64,000 bases of DNA, taken from a virus. Location of the stretch: UHGV virus genome UHGV-1378817. One strand, 5' to 3'. Both the position numbers and the translations under genes were made by a program. Numbering within the stretch: position 1 is the first letter of the stretch; each line of letters begins with the position of its first letter. The notes beneath the pieces are model-generated. The model saw only the letters and a list, made by a program, of their open reading frames with translations. It was not told the origin of the DNA and ran no database searches. Below, piece after piece: positions 2,763 to 61,090 of this stretch.

Positions 2763-2861
2763 GGTGCTAGGTGATGGAATCGAACCACCTATGTATTCAA
2801 CGACTACCTCGTCTATTTTCAGGATTAAAAATCCTCGCCCTTGCCAAAGGGCTTACCTAGC
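2763..2861 (-). tRNA. type II (long variable arm) tRNA-like gene, anticodon ambiguous
   Basis: Good acceptor stem (GCUAGGU/ACCUAGC), D-arm and T-arm (GGTTCGATTCC) plus a long variable arm, but the anticodon arm only forms a 4-bp stem with loop UUUUUAA; no encoded terminal A. Confidence 0.4.
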
Positions 2862-45317: not shown

Positions 45318-45446
45318 CACACAATTAGCTGCCCGGCTAAAGTGCTGGAAGCGCACCTATAACACATCTTTCAACTAAATTTCCTACCACCACAATCACT
45401 TACCTCCAACACATGACTGTTTGCTTGTTTAGTGAGCAGTCATGCC

Positions 45447-45474
45447 TTGACATTCTTGCCTATCCTGATAAAAT
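45447..45474 (+). promoter_or_regulatory. sigma70-like promoter reading into a GC-rich non-coding segment
   Basis: TTGACA-16 nt-TAAAAT with no ORF downstream; followed by about 270 nt of unusually GC-rich sequence ending in a G-run and T-rich stretch near 45730-45760. Confidence 0.4.
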
Positions 45475-47725
45475 TAAGTTCTTCTCTTTTCTTTTACCGA
45501 GTAATTCGGGTTTTCTGTTCTCTTCGGTTTGAAGGGGTATGGAGATACACCTGAGTGAACAGGGTGAACAACCGAACCATTGGCTATGGCATTAGCATGG
45601 CGAAGCGGACGGGTGACGAAAGAGGGGCCGGAGGACACCAGTCACTGCCATATGATATATGGGTGATAACCTGAAGAGTCTGAATAAGTGTTTAAGTACC
45701 AGTCAGAGGAAAAGGTGAATGGTAGCCGAAGGGGGAGGGGGGTTTCTTGTATCTTTAATTTGTATATTATGTATACACTTGTAAACCAATATCATCTAGA
45801 TCTGTTTACCACACAAAGTGGATAGAGACAAATATTACCTATTAAACTTGAATTATTTATAGAAAATACCACAACACCACTTAAGTCTTTGATTTTACAC
45901 ACAAATCTTACAGATATTCAACCTCCATATTTAACATACCTGTAACATATTCCATACTCTACCTGCCTGATCAATTTCCCCAACTACATCCCTCATATTT
46001 CCCCTGTCTGTACTACCCTGCCCCACCGGGAGTCCCGTCATATCTGGCTTTCCAGCAAATATCACACCCACAAATATCATGCCTGAAGAGGGTTTCATCC
46101 CATAATACCTGCCTTGCCTGAAGAGCGCTTCATACACCACGTAAATTTTTTAATTGACCTCCCCTGCCCCGCCGGAGAGGTTGGCTTTTCCCACACAGAC
46201 CTGAAGAGTCAGCCAGAAATATCTGAATAGGCCCAGTTCTACCACGATTTTGACCTGACCTACAGGAGCGCTGCCAGGCGGACGAAATGGGAATACTTCT
46301 CATTCTTATAACAATTCTCAAATATCGAGGCAGTGAGGCAAATTAATAGGCCAGGCCGTTCACACAGTGGCACAACATTTGCAACCTATCTTGTGGGGGT
46401 GAATGAGAATACCTATCATTGTGAGAACCATTATCATTACGGGCAATTTAACATAATACCCATTATGCGCACCACTGGTGATACATACAGGGATTGATAA
46501 CACGAGTTACAGTTTACGCATATAACAATCATATTTCTTACTATTTGTGTGGGATATAGTTAGCAGCCGATAGATTAGATATTGACCTGTGGACTTCCAA
46601 CCGTCTAGACGTCTAAGCGCCCACACAACAAGGCTTATACATACATTACTGAATGTAAACAGGGCCGCAAAAATGCTACCATACCAGTTTGTAAATTTTC
46701 ATGCAGCACTTGACAAAGAGGAGGAAAACTTGTCTGACACAATGTCACACAATATGACACAATAACGGCTGTTACCATTCCATATCTCACTGTTTACGCA
46801 TAGACTGTTTACGCCTGGATAGTTTACACCTTGACAGTTTACACAGATATGATAAGCCATGACATTCGTTTGCATGAAAACAATTAGCAAGTTAACAATT
46901 AACAAGTTAATAATATATGACATAATATAAAAGCAGGGCAACTATTAGAAGATCTATAGTTGCCTTGCTTGTTATGTCATGATTAACTAAATACAAGGCA
47001 ACTATGATCTGATTAATAGTTTGCAGACAAACTATCACGGGGGTGATGGTTACTGCTTTTATATTATGTCGCGACTCCGTCGCGCCATGCCATTCGTTTG
47101 CATAGTTGCCTTATTGTTACAGATAAAATAATTGTATTGTTAATTATTTCTTATCTTTCTATTAGTCATCTAATGATTCCGGTTAGTATAGTAACGTACA
47201 GTAAACATTAGACGACTAAATATTTCTATGTTTATGATAACCTATCGTGACAATTCCGGACTGTTTACGAAAAATGTTGACACCTGAGCTGATTTATGTT
47301 ATGCAATTTAAACGAATAATTATTTTATGCAGGTATTGACTATTCCGTTATTCTATGGTTGGAATAAATACTTAGCAAGCTATAGAATGGTGAGCGTACG
47401 TAAATTCTGAGATTTGTCGGCTATAGTTATACTCGATTTTTCACGTAGAACACGCTTTTTGGTTTGTGTAAGTGTATGACTTATAAAGATTTTTAGTTGT
47501 TGACAAGATATTGAAGATGTGCATCAGGTTAAATTTTGTGCAATAGCTGCATTACGTGCAATTTTGGAAGGAAAACTGGTAAAAATAGCACCGATACCAC
47601 ACAATGAAAGGTTATGCAATAGCTATTTTATATGTATATTTGTACAGTGTGCAGGATTGATGGCTCGTCAATTATTCCACTTGCCAGGTAGGGCCGTTTA
47701 TGGTAGGGGAAGAGCAGACAAAAAG

Positions 47726-47744
47726 AAAGGGGCCTAAGCCCCTT
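47726..47744 (-). terminator. rho-independent terminator (minus strand)
   Basis: On the minus strand AAGGGGC-ttag-GCCCCTT followed by TCTTTTT, immediately downstream of the stop of ORF 47763-48182. Confidence 0.5.
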
Positions 47745-47762
47745 GATAATTCAGTTAAAAAA

Positions 47763-48926: not shown

Positions 48927-49139
48927 AATGTTTTCCTCTCTTCTGGTTGTTGTGTGGGCACTTTTGCCCCTTCAAGATAAATGATACCCCCACCACCTGG
49001 CAGATGTCAACGGTTTTTATAGTTTTTTATATAACAGGCACCCCCGGTGATTGTCTCCCCCCGTCGCCAGGTGCCTGCCGTGAAACAAGTATAACAAAAA
49101 ACAGGACCATTGCAAGCCCTGTTTTGTAGTTTATAAATA

Positions 49140-54997: not shown

Positions 54998-55351
54998 TTA
55001 ATCTTCATATATTCCCCCCTTGCTAACTTCAATATTGGCCTGAATAGCCCGGATACGGCGCTTTATAACTTCCTGATCTGTGTGATCGTATCCCCAAAAG
55101 TCTACGATTTTTGCGCCTCCAGCCTTTAGGCGGTATAGTGTTTCTTGCATCTTGTAAGCCGGGATCGGTCGCGGTGTTACCTGGTCGCCCTTCTCATTCT
55201 TGTACTTGATAATGTAGTCTTCATTGTCGTTGAATACCCAAAATGGGTATTCTGTGAGCGCGTTGCTCTCTTTTTCGTTTTTAGATTGGATCTTGTTTAC
55301 AATTAAAGCCGTAGCAATAGCGCCAATAATAAAACTTGCCCCGCTGATCAT
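54998..55351 (-). CDS. membrane-anchored protein
   Basis: ORF 54998-55414 trimmed to Met MISGASFIIGAIATALIV; AAGGAG RBS. Confidence 0.4.
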   Translation of the reverse strand: MISGASFIIGAIATALIVNKIQSKNEKESNALTEYPFWVFNDNEDYIIKYKNEKGDQVTPRPIPAYKMQETLYRLKAGGAKIVDFWGYDHTDQEVIKRRIRAIQANIEVSKGGIYED

Positions 55352-55426
55352 GTACTTTCTCCTTTCATTGTGTTGATAAACTGTCTTTATAGATGGCCCT
55401 GCTACCAGGACCACCGAAAAAACAGC

Positions 55427-55672
55427 TTATTTGACGATACCGACAAAACAGATCCCGCCTTCCCCTATATAGGCAATATCGGTAATTTTATAATTTGTCA
55501 AGATCCGCGTGTTCAGATCATTAATAAAATCGGTCATCGCGTTGGTGTAGTTGTCTTCCGTGTCTAAGGCATAATCCCAGGTGTAAACCTTTTTACGTCC
55601 GAAGCCTTTTACCATGATACGGGCGCTTTTGGTGTTGGTAGGGGCATAATATTTAGTGATTAGTGCTGCCAT
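55427..55672 (-). CDS. hypothetical protein
   Basis: 81-aa ORF with AGGAG RBS; downstream of palindromic promoter copy 2. Confidence 0.45.
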   Translation of the reverse strand: MAALITKYYAPTNTKSARIMVKGFGRKKVYTWDYALDTEDNYTNAMTDFINDLNTRILTNYKITDIAYIGEGGICFVGIVK

Positions 55673-55713
55673 GGTTTTAACTCCTATGCATTAGTTCAGT
55701 GTTAACAGTATAA

Positions 55714-55759
55714 AGTTTACTTTATTGATGGCCCTAAAGTCAAGGCCATCTAAAAATAA
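55714..55759 (-). promoter_or_regulatory. conserved palindrome-embedded promoter element, copy 2
   Basis: AGTTTACTTTATTGATGGCCCTAAAGTCAAGGCCATCTAAAAATAA on the plus strand; same element as copies 1 and 3. Confidence 0.55.
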
Positions 55760-55761
55760 TC

Positions 55762-56103
55762 TTACTCGTTTTCTTCCAGCTCCGCAAGCTCTTCTTTTGC
55801 TTCTTCCAACCCTGTCTGTAATTCCTGGTATTCTTCATCGTCCTCAATATCCAGGCTGTCGATGTAGTCGCTAAATCCGCAGCGGTAAGCGATAGGATCT
55901 AGCTCCTTGAGGATACGCGACGGAAGAAAAGAAATGTTTCCGATCATAATTTCGCCGTAGATCTCGTCTAACCATTCATCATAGTTTTCGTCGTACTTGT
56001 CCTCGTCGATTTCAAAGTTATCGATCTTATTCTCAAGGTCTGCGATCTGTTTTTTCAGCGCGGCGATCTGCATAGCTTTTTCTGCGGCGGTCATAGTAGT
56101 CAT
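55762..56103 (-). CDS. hypothetical acidic coiled-coil protein
   Basis: 113-aa ORF, highly acidic C-terminus. Confidence 0.4.
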   Translation of the reverse strand: MTTMTAAEKAMQIAALKKQIADLENKIDNFEIDEDKYDENYDEWLDEIYGEIMIGNISFLPSRILKELDPIAYRCGFSDYIDSLDIEDDEEYQELQTGLEEAKEELAELEENE

Positions 56104-56179
56104 GGTGTTTTTCTCCTTTTGTGTGTTCTGGGAAGTTTTCCCGTTTATGTGCTTATTATATCGATTTAAGTTAGCTTGT

Positions 56180-56302
56180 CAATTAAAAGTTTAAGAAAAA
56201 TTTTGCGACACCGTTGGCGCTACCCATCAACATTTGCGCCAGGATGTACCCAATGATGCAAACGATGATGGTTACCTTTGTGTGCTGGCGTGTAGTACTC
56301 AT
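56180..56302 (-). CDS. small hydrophobic membrane peptide (~40 aa)
   Basis: Manual translation MSTTRQHTKVTIIVCIIGYILAQMLMGSANGVAKFFLNF; G-rich RBS; downstream of palindromic promoter copy 3; below the ORF-track cutoff. Confidence 0.35.
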
Positions 56303-56334
56303 CTTTAAGCCCCCTTTTCCGCTCAACTGTGGTT

Positions 56335-56380
56335 AGTTTACTTTATTGATGGCCCTGGTGTCAAGGCCATCTAAAAATAA
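56335..56380 (-). promoter_or_regulatory. conserved palindrome-embedded promoter element, copy 3
   Basis: AGTTTACTTTATTGATGGCCCTGGTGTCAAGGCCATCTAAAAATAA; differs from the other copies mainly in the 3-nt palindrome centre. Confidence 0.55.
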
Positions 56381-56382
56381 GC

Positions 56383-56787
56383 TTAATAAGTTTTCAGTAC
56401 TTTCCCGTCCAATCTGTCAAGCTGGATCTCGATAGCTGCAGAAAACCTATTGTAAACCACATCACCCATAGAATCCAACCAGTCTATGACATTATACACT
56501 TGCTCTTTGTTCTTGCAGGTCCGGATCCGTTTCATGATGTAAGCCGGATCAATATTGGTACTCTCGTTGGTGTTCCCCTGTACCTTGTTTGCCGTATTAG
56601 TTACATCTTTAATGGCCTTTACCACCACCTGGAATGGCTTTAAGGTGCCTTTTGCGTTCATCTCACGCGCTTTTGCGGCGCGGTTGTTATATGTTACACA
56701 ACGGCGGCAAATGTTGATCAAATGCATGTCAATAATTTTTTCATCGTTTGCCAACTCGTTCATGATGCGGCGTACGTTCTTATTCAT
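56383..56787 (-). CDS. hypothetical protein
   Basis: 134-aa ORF; minus-strand TTGACA promoter, GC hairpin and RBS upstream. Confidence 0.45.
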   Translation of the reverse strand: MNKNVRRIMNELANDEKIIDMHLINICRRCVTYNNRAAKAREMNAKGTLKPFQVVVKAIKDVTNTANKVQGNTNESTNIDPAYIMKRIRTCKNKEQVYNVIDWLDSMGDVVYNRFSAAIEIQLDRLDGKVLKTY

Positions 56788-56869
56788 GATCTTTTTCCTT
56801 TGTGCTGGCGGGAAACATTCCCGCCTTTTGTGTCTAGTTTATTTAAATTTTGCAGCGTGTCAATGATTT

Positions 56870-57268
56870 TTATTCGTGGGCGCATGTTACAATGTGCTTT
56901 TTATAGCCCAGGTGGTCAGCAAGTGCCGACAAAAACTCTTCTTCGTAGATCCAGCCGTCGGCAGTGATCCCCATAGCATTTAATGCGCTCTCAAGTGCTG
57001 CGTTAGCTTTATCGTAACCGTGACCGCTCGCCTTGCCGCCAGTATAACCGTACTTATTGTTCTTGTTGTCGTGAATCCAAAACACGCAGTAGTGAGTGTT
57101 ACCACTGGCGGCGGCATAATACCGGATCTCAGCTACTTCGTGCAAATTATTGTCATCGTCCAGGCCCACCAGATTATAAGCCTTGTAAAATCCACGATCA
57201 CGGCGGCAGTTCTTGACATCAGAAAAAGAAAAGTCCGCATTATCAAAATTAAAGGTAGTGGTTTTCAT
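56870..57268 (-). CDS. hypothetical protein
   Basis: 132-aa ORF. Confidence 0.45.
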   Translation of the reverse strand: MKTTTFNFDNADFSFSDVKNCRRDRGFYKAYNLVGLDDDNNLHEVAEIRYYAAASGNTHYCVFWIHDNKNNKYGYTGGKASGHGYDKANAALESALNAMGITADGWIYEEEFLSALADHLGYKKHIVTCAHE

Positions 57269-57332
57269 GATTTTATCCTCTTAGTGTCTTTTGTGCTTTT
57301 AGTGTATTTGGTGTCGGACTATATGTCAATAC

Positions 57333-57530
57333 TTATTTTTTATTAAACCAGTGGTTGATCTGTCCTTTTGTCAGGGCGCAACGATTAAGCTGTTGCCGGG
57401 TATAGCTCTGACCGCGACGGAATTTATAAAGGCCTTGCCCGTTGTTGATGGTTACGTCCACCTGGCAAACCATTTGATCGGTGACCACCTGGCGAGTGTT
57501 GCGACGTACTTTGATCCCGTATGCGTTCAT
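57333..57530 (-). CDS. small basic protein
   Basis: ORF 57333-57608 trimmed to Met MNAYGIKVRRNTRQ with AGAGGA RBS; minus-strand TTGACA-16-TATTAT promoter near 57590-57620. Confidence 0.4.
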   Translation of the reverse strand: MNAYGIKVRRNTRQVVTDQMVCQVDVTINNGQGLYKFRRGQSYTRQQLNRCALTKGQINHWFNKK

Positions 57531-57611
57531 AAATTTATCCTCTTTACTGGTTAGTGCGGTGTTGTTCACCTTGTAGGGTAATAATACCATGATTAACCTT
57601 GTTGTCAACGA

Positions 57612-57752
57612 TTATTTTAAATTATTTTTATGATAGAATCCACCTGCCGCCCCCGCCAGGTTAACCACCATTTTTTCGTACTCTTCTTTATGTTCTCGCG
57701 CTTCTGTATCATTAATCACTACATTTCCCAGGTGAGTAGCATTACCTTTCAT
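57612..57752 (-). CDS. hypothetical small protein (~46 aa)
   Basis: Manual translation MKGNATHLGNVVINDTEAREHKEEYEKMVVNLAGAAGGFYHKNNLK with GGAGGT RBS. Confidence 0.3.
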   Translation of the reverse strand: MKGNATHLGNVVINDTEAREHKEEYEKMVVNLAGAAGGFYHKNNLK

Positions 57753-58766
57753 TTTTGTACCTCCTCTTCAATTGTTTTCCCTACAGCATGGGCCTACCAG
57801 GTTTGCAAGATTTCACCCTCTCCCACCTGGTCAGTTAGGTCCTGCCAGGCTGGCCCCGCCAGGTTGCAACGGTTAGCGCATCAGGTTAGAAAAATTTTTT
57901 GAAAAGGTGTTGACAGCGGCCCCGCCAGGTGGCACAATATACCTATCGAAAGGACGGCAGGCACCGGTGACGGGGGAGACAACCACCGGGGATGGGCGCT
58001 GCATAAAATGAGAACGGTTATCATTATCATTTAAAAATTTATGCAAAAAATCCTTGCCTTCTTTGTCCTGTGTGATACTATAATAACAAGCCGGGGCAAC
58101 AGGGGCCGGGAGACAATCACCGGGCCTGCCCGTTATTCTGCAAACGAGAATGATTATCATTCAAAATTCTAAATGAGAACTCCTCGCATTTAATAAATTT
58201 AATTAGCACGCTAATTACCCTCCGTAACAATTTCCTATAAAATAGTATCCACTAAAATATTCCCATATAGAAATTTTAAAAATCCATTTCTGAAAACGAA
58301 AAATCGATTTCGTCCCCAAAAATTTCAGGTCGAGAGCTGGAACGATTTCCAGAAAATCCGATTCAGAAAACGAAAAACAGATCGAGTACTGAGAAATTTA
58401 TCGAGAAAAATTTTCAGAAAATTCAATCTTTGAAACGAAAAACAGATCGAGTACTTGGAAAGCTGTACCGCAACTTCAAGATAGTGGCTGGATTATTGCC
58501 ATAAAAGGCCAAGGGCGAGTGGGAAAGTTCTGGTAGAAGGGTGTGAGCATACGCGGAAAATCTGGAATGGTAGCCCGGAATATGACGCAAACGATAGGAT
58601 GAGTGGTTCAGCTCATCGTGTCTACCCTGAAAAATCCATTTTAGTTTTCGATCCGTTTTCTGATTTTCTAAGAATTTTAAAATATCTGGCCTGGTGAAAT
58701 ATCAAAAAGGAGGAAATCCATTTTAGAAATCCCCCTTATACTTGATATGCCAGAAATTTTCAAGTA
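57753..58766. repeat. 1-kb ORF-free, repeat-rich intergenic region
   Basis: No credible ORF; GCCCCGCCAGGT(T/G) repeats, two tandem paralogous units, 68-bp-spaced direct repeats, AAATCCATTT motifs; itemised in findings. Confidence 0.55.
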
Positions 58767-59096
58767 TCAGCTATCTTTGTTTTTAGGTTTATACATGCGG
58801 AGAGGTATAGTCTTTGTAACATTCCACTTCCTCAACCCTTCCCAGCTCCAATTGTGGGCGTGGTATCCGGTTATGCATGCACTGCTAGAGTGATCGTAAG
58901 CATAAGAGAACGCTAAGCGCACCAGGTGAGGCCAGTCCTTCCACGGTTGTGGCCCGTAAGCTTTTCTCCAACACCGACACAAACTAAATGTCTCAAGGAT
59001 AGGAAGGATAACAAACCCATACACTGTAACCAAAATAGTCAGTGCAATGATTGTCAGGAACACATACCCTGCAGTTGAAATGATGATCTCTGTCAT
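58767..59096 (-). CDS. membrane protein
   Basis: N-terminal hydrophobic segments (IISTAGYVFLTIIALTILVTVYGFVILPIL). Confidence 0.4.
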   Translation of the reverse strand: MTEIIISTAGYVFLTIIALTILVTVYGFVILPILETFSLCRCWRKAYGPQPWKDWPHLVRLAFSYAYDHSSSACITGYHAHNWSWEGLRKWNVTKTIPLRMYKPKNKDS

Positions 59097-59356
59097 TTGT
59101 CGTCCCCTTTCTTACGGATATAAATGTGAGAACCTGCCTGTATATAAATTTCTCGACCATCTTCTGCAAAGATGTGGAATACACGATCACCTTCGTACTC
59201 GATACGAGATATCTTCATAATTGTCTTTCCGCCTGGGATGCGGATCTCGTCTCCCACAGCGATGTTCCATGCAGATTTAAGCTTAAACATCCGCACCCTC
59301 CTTTGGGAACTCGAATTCTGGCATAGCCATATACGCCACAACAGGGTTGTAATCAA
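59093..59356 (-). CDS. hypothetical protein
   Basis: 87-aa ORF coupled to the downstream gene. Confidence 0.4.
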   Translation of the reverse strand: MITTLLWRIWLCQNSSSQRRVRMFKLKSAWNIAVGDEIRIPGGKTIMKISRIEYEGDRVFHIFAEDGREIYIQAGSHIYIRKKGDDK

Positions 59357-59528
59357 AGTAGAAATGACCGTTAATTATCCCAGTTTTGTGCACATGGTCA
59401 CCAGATCCTGCAAGAACAATCTCGCAAGCTCCGAAATCTACCTTACCATTCTCATCTGCCATGGCTACAATATACTTTCCTAGAGGCATGTTTTCAACGC
59501 CGTCTACAAATGTCCACCCTTTGTTCAT
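59283..59528 (-). CDS. hypothetical protein
   Basis: 81-aa ORF. Confidence 0.4.
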   Translation of the reverse strand: MNKGWTFVDGVENMPLGKYIVAMADENGKVDFGACEIVLAGSGDHVHKTGIINGHFYFDYNPVVAYMAMPEFEFPKEGADV

Positions 59529-59548
59529 ACTTTATCTCCTGCACTTTC

Positions 59549-59884
59549 TTAAGGTAACCAGTAAACAATCTCGCCTTTCAGCTTCATGTCATTTCCAACA
59601 TAAATTTGCCAGCCATCCATCGTTTTGGCAACTGCAGGCCCAAAGTCATCCGCACCCCTTACCTCTTTCCAGGTCCCGTAGTCAGGTTGCCAGATATAAA
59701 ATCCACCTTCTTTGTCCCATGCTCCATACACCACGTTTGACAGGTTTCCCATTGCAACAATAGTGGGCCGTGGGAATAATGCATCTACAGATGCGCCACA
59801 ATATCGGGTATCTTTTAAATTGCAATCCCAAAAGATGTCTGCCAGTGTGGCGGCGATAGCTTTACGTCTTTCCAATGTTACCAT
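59549..59884 (-). CDS. hypothetical protein
   Basis: 111-aa ORF. Confidence 0.4.
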   Translation of the reverse strand: MVTLERRKAIAATLADIFWDCNLKDTRYCGASVDALFPRPTIVAMGNLSNVVYGAWDKEGGFYIWQPDYGTWKEVRGADDFGPAVAKTMDGWQIYVGNDMKLKGEIVYWLP

Positions 59885-59891
59885 ATCATAC

Positions 59892-60083
59892 TCACTTGTT
59901 GTTAAGAAGTTCTAAAACTTTCTGTCTTACTTTGTCAAGGTCTGTGGATTCAAAAACTGTACGGTATCCCCAACTTTGCCCATAGGAGTGACTGCAATCC
60001 CCGTAGCACCATTGCTCAATTTGATAGTATTCAAGGAACGGGTGCTGTCTAACTATGATACCATCTCGGTTAAAAATTACCAT
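59892..60083 (-). CDS. hypothetical protein
   Basis: 63-aa ORF. Confidence 0.35.
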   Translation of the reverse strand: MVIFNRDGIIVRQHPFLEYYQIEQWCYGDCSHSYGQSWGYRTVFESTDLDKVRQKVLELLNNK

Positions 60084-60146
60084 AATACATCGCTCTCTGT
60101 TAGTTTATGCGTATATTATACACTGCAGTTTTCAGATGTCAACCTC

Positions 60147-60398
60147 TTACAGATTGCTCCAGTACAATCGGCATTTACATTTTGGGCAATGAGGTTCTTT
60201 TATATAATAACCATCAGTCTTTGGAACACTTTTTGGTGCAGTTTTAAGATTGTACCTGGTAAAACATCGGAAGCAGGTTACCTCTCCCACCTGTTGATCG
60301 TTGATCCACTCACCAGAGTAAAGTTCTTTCTTGTTTCTCATAATTCTCTCCCAAATCATCTGCAATCTTATACCAAAATCTCCAGCCAGAAAGCACAC
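60147..60398 (-). CDS. small zinc-ribbon protein
   Basis: CFRC...CPKCKC Cys pairs. Confidence 0.35.
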   Translation of the reverse strand: MCFLAGDFGIRLQMIWERIMRNKKELYSGEWINDQQVGEVTCFRCFTRYNLKTAPKSVPKTDGYYIKEPHCPKCKCRLYWSNL

Positions 60399-60592
60399 GG
60401 GAACACTTTGAGGATTGAATCTTTACTTGGCTCGGAAGTTCTTTTTCCGTATGGTAGGTAGAAATACCCTCCTGCAGATTCGAATATAGCTCCTTCGGTT
60501 GTATCTACCACAGCAAGAATTAAGATTTTAGTCTCCACAGTGCTCTCCTCTCTTAGTTGTTGTGGAAACTATATCACCTCAGAAGATGGTCG

Positions 60593-61090
60593 TCAACACT
60601 TTTTGTACTCTACTACAACCACATCAATATCTGTGGTTGCAAGATTAATTACATCTTCTACATGTTTCCACTTTAGACCTCCAATACCGCATCCGATTTT
60701 AGGAATGTAGAACGGCAATGACATACCTTTGAATACCTCGTTGACTCGCTCAAAACCTTTCATGATTGAGAAGTATTCAGCATTGGGCCCTGGGTAGAAC
60801 TGGGTATATAGGTTGATTCCATATACGACCCTGGCCTTGGCAAAATGCTCCCAACAAGAAAACATACCCAGCTTGTCTAGATTACCATAAGCAGTCTCTT
60901 TGTCGGCTGCCAGTGCTTGAGGGAACTCACGGGCAATATCTTTCGCTATACCTGCACCCATTGTGTGAAAGCAGTTACAACCGTGGATCATGTGGCCTGA
61001 CCCTTTCTTGAAAATGGAGATTAGATCTCCCTTTACAGTATCAATAATCACGGTATTCCAGCTCCTCTTCTGCAATTTCCAAAAACTCAT
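60593..61090 (-). CDS. macro-domain protein (ADP-ribose binding/processing)
   Basis: VIIDTVKGDLISIF...HGCNCFHTMGAGIAKDI fits the macro-domain N-terminal pattern. Start uncertain: the longest ORF reaches 61150 and overlaps the upstream gene by about 110 nt; Met at 61090 still overlaps by about 50 nt. Confidence 0.45.
   Translation of the reverse strand: MSFWKLQKRSWNTVIIDTVKGDLISIFKKGSGHMIHGCNCFHTMGAGIAKDIAREFPQALAADKETAYGNLDKLGMFSCWEHFAKARVVYGINLYTQFYPGPNAEYFSIMKGFERVNEVFKGMSLPFYIPKIGCGIGGLKWKHVEDVINLATTDIDVVVVEYKKC

Follow-up and report, generated by a model that had tools for sequence, protein, structure and literature searches.

Putative Fur operators between predicted promoters and iterons in a conserved non-coding locus of rV5-like phages

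Transcription-activated replication origins are known from several phages: the primary origin of T7 contains tandem promoters and an AT-rich stretch, oriE and oriF of T4 contain a promoter and iterons or an unwinding element, and the lambda origin contains iterons. In this study we analysed a stretch of 64,000 nt from the virus genome UHGV-1378817, hereafter the window, in which a non-coding island at positions 57838-58787 carries putative operators for the host metal regulator Fur between predicted promoters and three iterons. Our full-text searches yielded phage Fur boxes only upstream of cargo genes, sitABCD, of temperate lambdoid phages, and no description of Fur boxes in virulent phages. 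In Escherichia coli the gpmA site is among the strongest Fur sites (Chen et al. 2007, PMC2189734). For the untranslated repeat region at the injection stop of phage T5, DnaA boxes were described and Fur was not mentioned (preprint 10.1101/866236). The genome paper of phage rV5 sought the origin by skew analysis, placed none and did not discuss the island; literature searches on the rV5 origin and on Vequintavirus transcriptomes yielded nothing relevant.

The reading that we favour, at a probability of roughly 0.45, is that the island is a non-coding cis-acting control locus common to Vequintavirinae, which would be transcribed from the plus strand, gated by Fur and probably used as a replication origin. 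The finding combines known kinds of elements, Fur operators and iteron-bearing control regions.

A non-coding island under sequence constraint

The region matched 122 phage records, with Escherichia phage ime as the best match (96.9% identity) and rV5 at 88.5%, and because of these matches we assigned the window to an rV5-like Vequintavirus. The rV5 counterpart of the island is located at 116,612-117,666, within a long minus-strand block of small early genes. Eight Vequintaviruses were aligned and the mean pairwise identity was calculated in 40-nt bins. In the left flank (57770-57849) the identity was only 0.47-0.57, with deletions of 10-48 nt. It climbed to 0.95 from 57850 and was 0.89-0.99 over the core at 57850-58449; in the bin at 58130-58169 it amounted to 99.3%. 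Over 58450-58649, which includes a variable spacer (58462-58649), the identity was 0.73-0.81 with 1-2-nt indels at 58522, 58545, 58554, 58600 and 58629, and at 58650-58689 it was back up to 0.95. The AT skew was positive over 57800-58600 (plus strand A-rich), opposite to the flanking minus-strand genes. A blastn search of 57900-58210 against E. coli genomes came back empty, which argues that the locus was not acquired from the host. We concluded that the island is non-coding and under strong sequence constraint.

The initial annotation had described the island as free of open reading frames (ORFs). In substance this was correct, but the minus strand does contain ORFs of 95 aa (57873-58160; rV5 gp193) and 55 aa (58423-58590), the former without gene-like behaviour. 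ORF calls in GenBank are inconsistent here: rV5, Gotham, Mangalyan and HMD-6 are annotated with such ORFs, and Alma, nomo and PDX with none. A Pfam search of the ORFs in the island and its flanks matched no family. Reading frames are also not preserved among relatives. Phage AlexBoehm (Bas56) lacks 134 nt equivalent to 57974-58107, a deletion that takes out the middle of the 95-aa ORF and is not a multiple of 3, and the 1-2-nt indels break frames further downstream. A small ORF in the element labelled unit B (..RETnTnPARYSANEND.., ..TPGVPnILQMRMII..) was considered and rejected; it has no common start codon and its frames switch between genera, and therefore the conserved-looking frames of unit B were taken as a by-product of DNA conservation.

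Fur-type operators, predicted promoters and iterons

The initial annotation had recognised two related tandem units that share the ending GAGAAYNNTTATCATT, which we located at 58010 and 58146. The point it missed, and the most informative one, is that this shared ending is, to judge from its sequence, an operator of the host regulator Fur. The box motif is the dyad AATGAGAAT-n-ATT(C/A)TCATT, and three operators are predicted in the island. Operator 1 (58007-58031, AATGAGAACGGTTATCATT) has an overlapping register at 58013, and the two registers scored 23.9 and 11.3 bits on a weight matrix built from 11 boxes of related phages only; 16 of its 19 positions agree with GATAATGATAATCATTATC. Operator 2 (58143-58161, AACGAGAATGATTATCATT, 23.7 bits) agrees at 15 of 19 positions and is two positions in 19 off the ryhB operator. 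Operator 3 (58172-58190, AATGAGAACTCCTCGCATT, 19.0 bits, 9 of 19 positions) is degenerate and lies 29 bp beyond the second one. The consensus phage box AATGAGAATGATTATCATT, whose 16-nt core lies at 58146-58161, differs from the ryhB operator AATGAGAATGATTATTATT at a single one of 19 positions. A Fur box is expected to show the 19-bp dyad GATAATGATAATCATTATC or its 7-1-7 form TGATAATnATTATCA, and the ent sites of E. coli score 13-16 of 19, in the same range as operators 1 and 2.

The phage-derived matrix was then applied to approx. 70 kb of E. coli DNA, where it shared its specificity with experimentally known Fur sites. In the 26-kb ent cluster seven of the eight matches of at least 8 bits fell into the fepA-fes, fepD-entS and fepB-entC intergenic regions, which constitute 2.8% of the scanned ent DNA. 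The top match in a 22-kb ryhB region (28.0 bits) was positioned directly upstream of the ryhB 5' end, and that in a 22-kb gpmA region (29.5 bits) just upstream of gpmA. When viral contigs were scanned for exact matches with the left half-site fixed as GAGAAT, the right half was ATTATC or ATTCTC, both in many contigs, which fits a dimeric protein site better than an RNA stem. The window contains six strong boxes (58007, 58143 and 58172, and 46286, 46402 and 46420), all in two ORF-free islands, and the shuffled window gave 0-5 weak matches. In the complete rV5 genome 8 matches reached 12 bits or more, compared to a mean of 1.06 in shuffles; the two islands contained six of them, and a seventh lay at an island edge. 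These comparisons support the Fur-site identity of the boxes well, and we consider it very likely that Fur would bind to the island. The second island (45440-47760) corresponds to the rV5 'non-coding' stretch at 104,013-106,618, where plus- and minus-strand gene blocks converge; its boxes are GAGAAYNNTTATCATT-related copies at 46289-46438, and four GTTTAC(G/A)C direct repeats are found at approx. 46790-46850.

Sensitive blastn searches recovered unit 2 with its box at 80-88% identity, always in unannotated DNA, from Seunavirus (GAP31, PVP-SE1, 4MG), Mydovirus (Mydo, KpS11), Certrevirus (POP15), Erwinia phage Hena1 and Phapecoctavirus (phAPEC8). We labelled the loci with L-numbers (L004, GAP31; L005, PVP-SE1; L006, phAPEC8; L149, AlexBoehm). 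The order in these relatives is a sigma-70 promoter, an element that we call unit A, TTTGTAAAGAnnTGTAAAGA, a second promoter, a hairpin unit with the loop GAGACAAnCACC, one to four Fur boxes, a further promoter, three iterons, and TTTGAGATAA and AAATATC repeats. The succession of promoter, hairpin, box and iterons is kept in Seunavirus, Mydovirus, Certrevirus and another relative from IMG/VR; phAPEC8 has the same order through the boxes, followed by different AT-rich repeats instead of iterons. The box spacing of approx. 29-32 bp recurs in GAP31, phAPEC8 and L091, and both the 3' half of the unit and its junction with the box (TGCCYGYYATTCnnnAAATGAGAAT) show sequence conservation. Where other genera have unit A, Vequintavirus has a duplicated hairpin unit, unit 1; unit A and the motifs TGTAAAGA and TTTGAGATAA of the relatives are absent from the window, and the small plus-strand gene preceding the locus in other genera has no homologue there. 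The architecture is conserved across genera. Conservation of the repeats in related phages had been set beforehand as a check; it was found, and among the explanations offered initially it fits a cis-acting DNA site best. In one uncultured relative (L129, 4960-5440) a gene-sized insertion with an ORF from approx. 4986 parts the hairpin unit from its promoter, and this insertion may be a mobile or homing element that targets the locus.

Unit A is a real structured RNA of approx. 85 nt on the same strand. It follows directly after a sigma-70 promoter (L004 1290-1400, L005 1310-1420 and L006 1370-1470, plus strand; also in L012, L022, L038, L039, L091, L129, L131, L133 and L143) and consists of a hairpin, a pseudoknot from the loop to a downstream segment, a variable hairpin and the invariant tail AAGGUnGAUCGCCGGUAG. 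The pseudoknot CCCC/GGGG changes to CCAA/UUGG or CCAG/CUGG, six pairs show compensatory changes, and 82.8% of the cells were paired compared to 74.7% in shuffles, with none of 500 shuffles reaching the observed value. A search of three related loci against Rfam at E up to 1 returned no family, unit A included, and it looks like an undescribed phage RNA family. Because unit A is structured on the same strand, it supports rightward transcription of the syntenic locus.

For the island itself we consider plus-strand transcription probable. Three candidate promoters can be read in this direction. Promoter P1 (57910-57938, plus strand) consists of TTGACA, a 17-nt spacer with GCCAGGTGG and a TG-extended CACAAT, with 10 of 12 matches and a predicted start at approx. 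57945. The initial annotation had proposed such a TTGACA promoter antisense to the flanking genes, and P1 is indeed a plausible sigma-70 promoter; it is almost invariant in the 8 phages, and the same design of TTGACA, GCCAGGTGG and -10 element also drives a real gene at approx. 49010 on the minus strand. Promoter P2 (58054-58084, plus strand) was read from the sequence and fell under the threshold of the promoter scan. It combines TTGCCT with TACTAT after 16 nt or TATAAT after 19 nt (TGtGATACT), with a predicted start at approx. 58091, and its counterpart PB has the canonical spacing of 16-17 nt in GAP31, L091, L022 and phAPEC8. The third candidate, PC (TTACCC-17-TAAAAT, 58215-58243), was likewise read by eye and follows the 18-bp palindrome TAATTAGCACGCTAATTA in a plus-strand element at 58200-58243 that is 92-96% identical; PC points into the iterons, and GAP31 and PVP-SE1 have a TTGACA promoter at its position.

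Between these promoters lie the two tandem units, for which GGGAGACAAYCACCGGG was found at 57974 and 58108 as initially reported (0.16 matches expected by chance). Unit 1 (57947-58008, plus strand) is a GC-rich hairpin module with the loop motif GGGAGACAACCACCGGG and a paralogue of unit 2 (35 bits, E 1e-5); unit 2 (58080-58145, plus strand; 61 bits) contains GGGAGACAATCACCGGG followed by TGCCCGTTATTCTGCAAAC and folds with z = -2.6. In AlexBoehm, recombination between the two at the shared GGGAGACAA left one chimeric unit (unit 1 and the first half of unit 2 gone) and removed Fur box 1 and P2. AlexBoehm is a viable BASEL isolate, and the unit duplication is therefore dispensable. A covariance model search of the window gave exactly three unit copies, 58080-58145 and 57947-58008 on the plus strand and 49025-49088 on the minus strand. 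The latter carries the GGGAGACAATCACCGGG motif and a copy of GGGAGACAAYCACCGGG at 49043-49059 that had gone unnoticed in the initial annotation. It is co-directional with its flanking genes (context 48990-49135), no Fur box comes after it, and it is flanked by a terminator-like hairpin, in which a TTGCAA-17-TATACT promoter is embedded, and by a TTGACA..GCCAGGTGG..TATCAT promoter. Unit paralogues in other genera also occupy ordinary intergenic sites in sense direction, just downstream of a promoter. An outer stem can form in every copy, and often a second, inner one (CCGG) can enclose the conserved loop. The outer stem of the plus-strand hairpin frequently contains G-U wobble pairs; provided that the stem matters, this points to the plus strand. 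We treated the units as promoter-proximal leader hairpins of uncertain role.

Downstream of PC the island contains three iterons (58266-58322, 58340-58396 and 58405-58461). The 26-nt direct repeat of the initial annotation is present in two of them, with cores ..GAAAACGAAAAAnnGATCGAGTAC at 58366-58390 and 58432-58455; these are 65 bp apart, not 68 bp, and have 24-25 nt in common. Its degenerate copy was located at approx. 58292-58319, which makes the long repeat a family of three. The copies are 63-79% identical with unrelated linkers, and they are spaced by 78 and 65 bp. Homologous iterons occur in exactly three copies, spaced by 67 and 74-76 bp, in GAP31, PVP-SE1, KpS11 and L012; the 70% consensus of the homologous iterons is AAAnnTTTT..AAATACGnTnTnGAAAnnGAAAAnnCGATCGAGnAC, and GAAAAATTTTTTCG motifs are present in GAP31 and PVP-SE1. 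An iteron origin is expected to have at least three regularly spaced, conserved direct repeats and an AT-rich unwinding region; the three repeats are there, and the stretch 58100-58500 is AT-rich, with 33-37% GC compared to 40-48% in the flanks. We tentatively infer that the iterons mark a replication origin.

Further elements border these features. At the left edge of the conserved core (57838-57873) lie two copies of CCTGGC(G/A)GG(G/A)CC, the second adjoining a minus-strand TTGCAA. The motif recurs in or beside early promoters of the phage group and resembles the TTGCATCCTGGCGGGG promoters in GAP31 and PVP-SE1. The reported copies of GCCCCGCCAGGT were exact at 57853 and 57919 and had one mismatch at 57650, where 0.1 matches were expected by chance. 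The GC-rich CCTGGCGGGG(CC) or its complement was seen in or near the spacers of early sigma-70 promoters (57853-57864, 57919-57930, approx. 49000, L004 1010-1030 and L005 1025-1045), and it could serve as a promoter signature of this group or as the site of a regulator. The repeated motif AAATCCATTT was confirmed at 58280, 58632 and 58714; all the repeats and motifs listed initially far exceeded the shuffle expectation. A plus-strand hairpin in the variable spacer (58593-58622, -15.7 kcal/mol, z = -3.5, plus strand only) keeps its pairs via G-U in the substitutions of ime, AlexBoehm and Alma, and rV5 and Mangalyan diverge more. The second conserved block (58632-58730), with AAATCCATTT and AAATATC motifs, resembles the block after the iterons in Mydovirus. 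A weak AT-rich hairpin with 11-nt arms followed by CTTTGTTTTT (58735-58787, plus strand, -7.7 kcal/mol, no better than shuffles) shares sequence with the stop codon of the minus-strand gene (58767) and is a weak candidate for the end point of plus-strand transcripts. Elsewhere in the window, ARAGORN reported a 99-nt tRNA-like gene with a four-base anticodon (atcc) at 2763-2861 (minus strand), in the phage tRNA cluster; rV5 annotates none there.

Explanations for the locus

In the reading that we favour, host RNA polymerase would initiate at P1 (57910), P2 (58054) and possibly PC (58215), always rightward and against the flanking genes. The first two transcripts would open with the GC-rich hairpin leaders of units 1 and 2, and within approx. 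ten bases of each hairpin they would meet a predicted high-affinity Fur operator (58007, 58143 and 58172). Iron-loaded Fur could occupy these operators immediately upon DNA entry and might gate rightward transcription into the iterons, by occlusion or as a roadblock. The iteron region would then most likely be a transcription-activated origin, or a comparable site of protein assembly. Phage DNA synthesis, with its iron-requiring ribonucleotide reductases, would thereby be coupled to the iron status of the host; rV5 encodes NrdAB, NrdDG and glutaredoxin, and NrdAB and NrdDG are iron enzymes that make its deoxynucleotides.

Several observations weigh against this reading. The boxes are located approx. 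50-70 nt downstream of the predicted P1 and P2 starts and not over the -35 and -10 elements, which are the usual place of Fur repression. The only promoters that they overlap are weak minus-strand candidates, and they lie at least 25 nt upstream of PC; roadblock control by Fur would be unusual. The spacing of P2 is non-optimal in this window. The island contains no DnaA boxes, and neither the flanking ORFs nor the Pfam search revealed a recognisable initiator gene adjacent to it. The GC skew was uninformative at the island, both as computed here and in the rV5 paper. The second and larger island at approx. 45.4-47.8 kb is an equally good candidate for the origin, or alternatively for the terminus. 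The units gave no clear sign of being structured RNAs: RNAalifold found no consensus structure in a sequence alignment of 24 units, and after realignment of 37 copies with a covariance model of hand-set structure, covariation counted on 34 distinct sequences was not significant (66.7% of the cells paired versus 65.3% in shuffles, 49 of 500 shuffles reaching the observed value). Their folding energies were ordinary, with a mean z-score of -0.43. In view of this lack of a consensus fold, of covariation and of unusual energy we make no structured-RNA claim for units 1-3.

Instead of gating the locus, the operators could act as a Fur sink: near-consensus sites on the multiplying genome would draw Fur off host promoters and derepress iron uptake, RyhB and the Mn-dependent NrdEF to the benefit of the phage, with a separate role for hairpins and iterons. 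The principle of titration is established (PMC2189734). The phage boxes match the strongest host sites and beat the ent sites (19-24 versus 13-17 bits on the matrix made from phage boxes), and arrays with a phasing of approx. 30 bp occur in several phage groups, with four boxes in phAPEC8 and four in the unrelated contig L013. A cell, however, contains thousands of Fur molecules, and with only about six strong boxes per genome, even a few hundred genome copies would titrate no more than part of them. The position of the boxes after the promoter and hairpin and before the iterons is moreover fixed across genera, which argues for a local, position-dependent role, and we regard a sink as unlikely. 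The operators might alternatively control leftward promoters embedded in them, as at ryhB, from which RNA antisense to the P1 and P2 leaders would be made at low iron, either as a Fur-regulated phage small RNA or as transcriptional interference with rightward reading. Candidates are TTGAAT-18-CAGAAT (58166-58137) and TTCTCA (58186-58181) with GATAAT (58164-58159). The box would then serve as promoter spacer, as is classical for Fur, and the same box stands in the ryhB promoter. Almost all genera retain TTGAATGA following the box and nnGAAT preceding it, and such an RNA would have the conserved half of the unit at its 5' end. Both candidates are nevertheless weak, the first with 8 of 12 matches and an 18-nt spacer and the second with a 15-nt spacer, and neither was reported by the promoter scan. 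The -11 position of the candidate -10 element varies among genera, plus-strand G-U pairs become C-A mismatches on the minus strand, most genera have no U-tract after the hairpin, and unit 1 lacks comparable elements. Such a leftward control appears improbable to us.

Units 1-3 could also be small RNA genes in their own right, or RNA elements close to the promoter that serve, for example, in antitermination (nut/put type) or as 5' stabilisers. A protein or a target RNA would then bind the loop GAGACAAnCACC, and the Fur boxes would only set the timing. Each unit starts 8-10 nt downstream of a sigma-70 -10 element, the third copy and the paralogues of other genera stand in intergenic, sense, post-promoter positions, the loop motif is conserved and the 5' stem arm variable, and one stem position shows a compensatory change from A-U to G-C between L038 and L039. 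The promoter/terminator scan found no terminator-like site after either unit, though, so that a promoter and terminator of their own are not both present. Covariation and folding were no better than in shuffled sequences as described above, no Rfam family matched, and a natural phage with the two units fused to one is viable. The small RNA interpretation of the initial annotation is thus retained only weakly, with regard to promoter and hairpin potential, and we hold an independent function of the units to be of low probability. Minus-strand small proteins (rv5_gp193, gp194 and their equivalents) were rejected as very improbable. The two ORFs and the annotation of similar ones in four phages speak for them; in addition to the inconsistent calls, the missing Pfam matches, the non-triplet deletion in a viable phage and the indels in the gp194 region, the 95-aa ORF has its ATG within a Fur box and lacks a ribosome-binding site, and no frame has a start codon common across genera. 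Finally, the initial annotation had suggested a decoy RNA like the antitoxin ToxI, which would counter abortive infection by type III toxin-antitoxin systems. Its sole support is the presence of direct repeats downstream of a promoter. ToxI-type repeats are near-identical units of approx. 34-36 nt placed head to tail, unlike the three copies here with their period of 65-78 bp, 63-79% identity and unrelated linkers. No Rfam family was found in the window at 55000-61000 with E up to 1, and phages of Cronobacter, Salmonella, Klebsiella and Proteus have retained the same three repeats, whose internal dyads are typical of DNA sites. We consider this explanation the least probable of all.

Boxes of the same type were seen far beyond the rV5-like phages. 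In T5-like phages the Fur-type palindrome ATGAGAATGATTCTCAT is located within the left terminal repeat, at approx. 9.15 kb and close to where the injection-stop repeat region begins (L008 3160-3177; L007-L011, L023 and L094-L096; chee24, MF431730, approx. 9.15 kb), some with tandem boxes. Phages of widely differing kinds contained the exact box ATGAGAATGATTMTCATT, which was present in more than 120 IMG/VR stretches, often in tandem or right after TTGACA-17-TATAAT; this exact-match scan was too unspecific for collecting homologues. Unrelated contigs with two to four Fur-type boxes approx. 29-30 bp apart were L013, L028, L041, L053, L067 and L094, and in L042, L050, L054 and L064 a box stands directly downstream of TTGACA-17-TATAAT. 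We tentatively propose that virulent phages of several unrelated lineages (rV5-like, phAPEC8-like, T5-like and uncultured) plant near-consensus host Fur operators, often in arrays with a phasing of approx. 30 bp, in their most conserved non-coding control regions, and that the iron status of the host, via Fur, might license early phage transcription or replication, or that the phage might draw Fur off the host regulon. If true, this would be an unrecognised and widespread link between phage development and bacterial iron homeostasis, and the box in the T5 injection-stop region together with the more than 120 unrelated viral contigs suggests a general phenomenon. The island is in addition a concrete, conserved origin candidate for rV5-like phages, which are candidates for therapy and biocontrol and members of the BASEL collection. 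Should Fur gate the locus, the growth of the phage would hinge on iron availability; infected tissue and the gut are low in iron, and this would bear on phage therapy.

Comparison with described systems

RyhB-type genes share with the island a near-identical Fur box adjoining a short, hairpin-forming non-coding unit. They differ in that the box of the island comes after the unit in the best-supported orientation, that no terminator is present, and that neither similarity to RyhB nor an Rfam match was found. The injection-stop region of T5 is likewise a large, conserved, repeat-rich non-coding region of a virulent coliphage to which a host DNA-binding protein can bind; T5 belongs to an unrelated family, however, the homology is limited to the box, and the T5 region is linked to an entry of the DNA in two steps, of which there is no sign here.

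With the Fur operators of E. coli at ryhB, gpmA, iucA and ent, the boxes of the island share the same 19-bp dyad, and the matrix derived from phage boxes recovers the host sites. As in host Fur clusters, the boxes are overlapping and phased (PMC2189734). Unlike the operators of the host, they belong to a virulent phage, are positioned downstream of predicted promoters beside hairpins and iterons, and have no iron gene near them.

Compared to the origins of T7, T4 and lambda, no initiator gene or DnaA box was found, sites for a host metal regulator lie between promoters and iterons, and a second island competes for the role. The island resembles these origins, as they are generally known, in its tandem promoters that lead into AT-rich, regularly spaced and dyad-bearing repeats, and as in transcription-activated origins it is non-coding and more conserved than the neighbouring genes.

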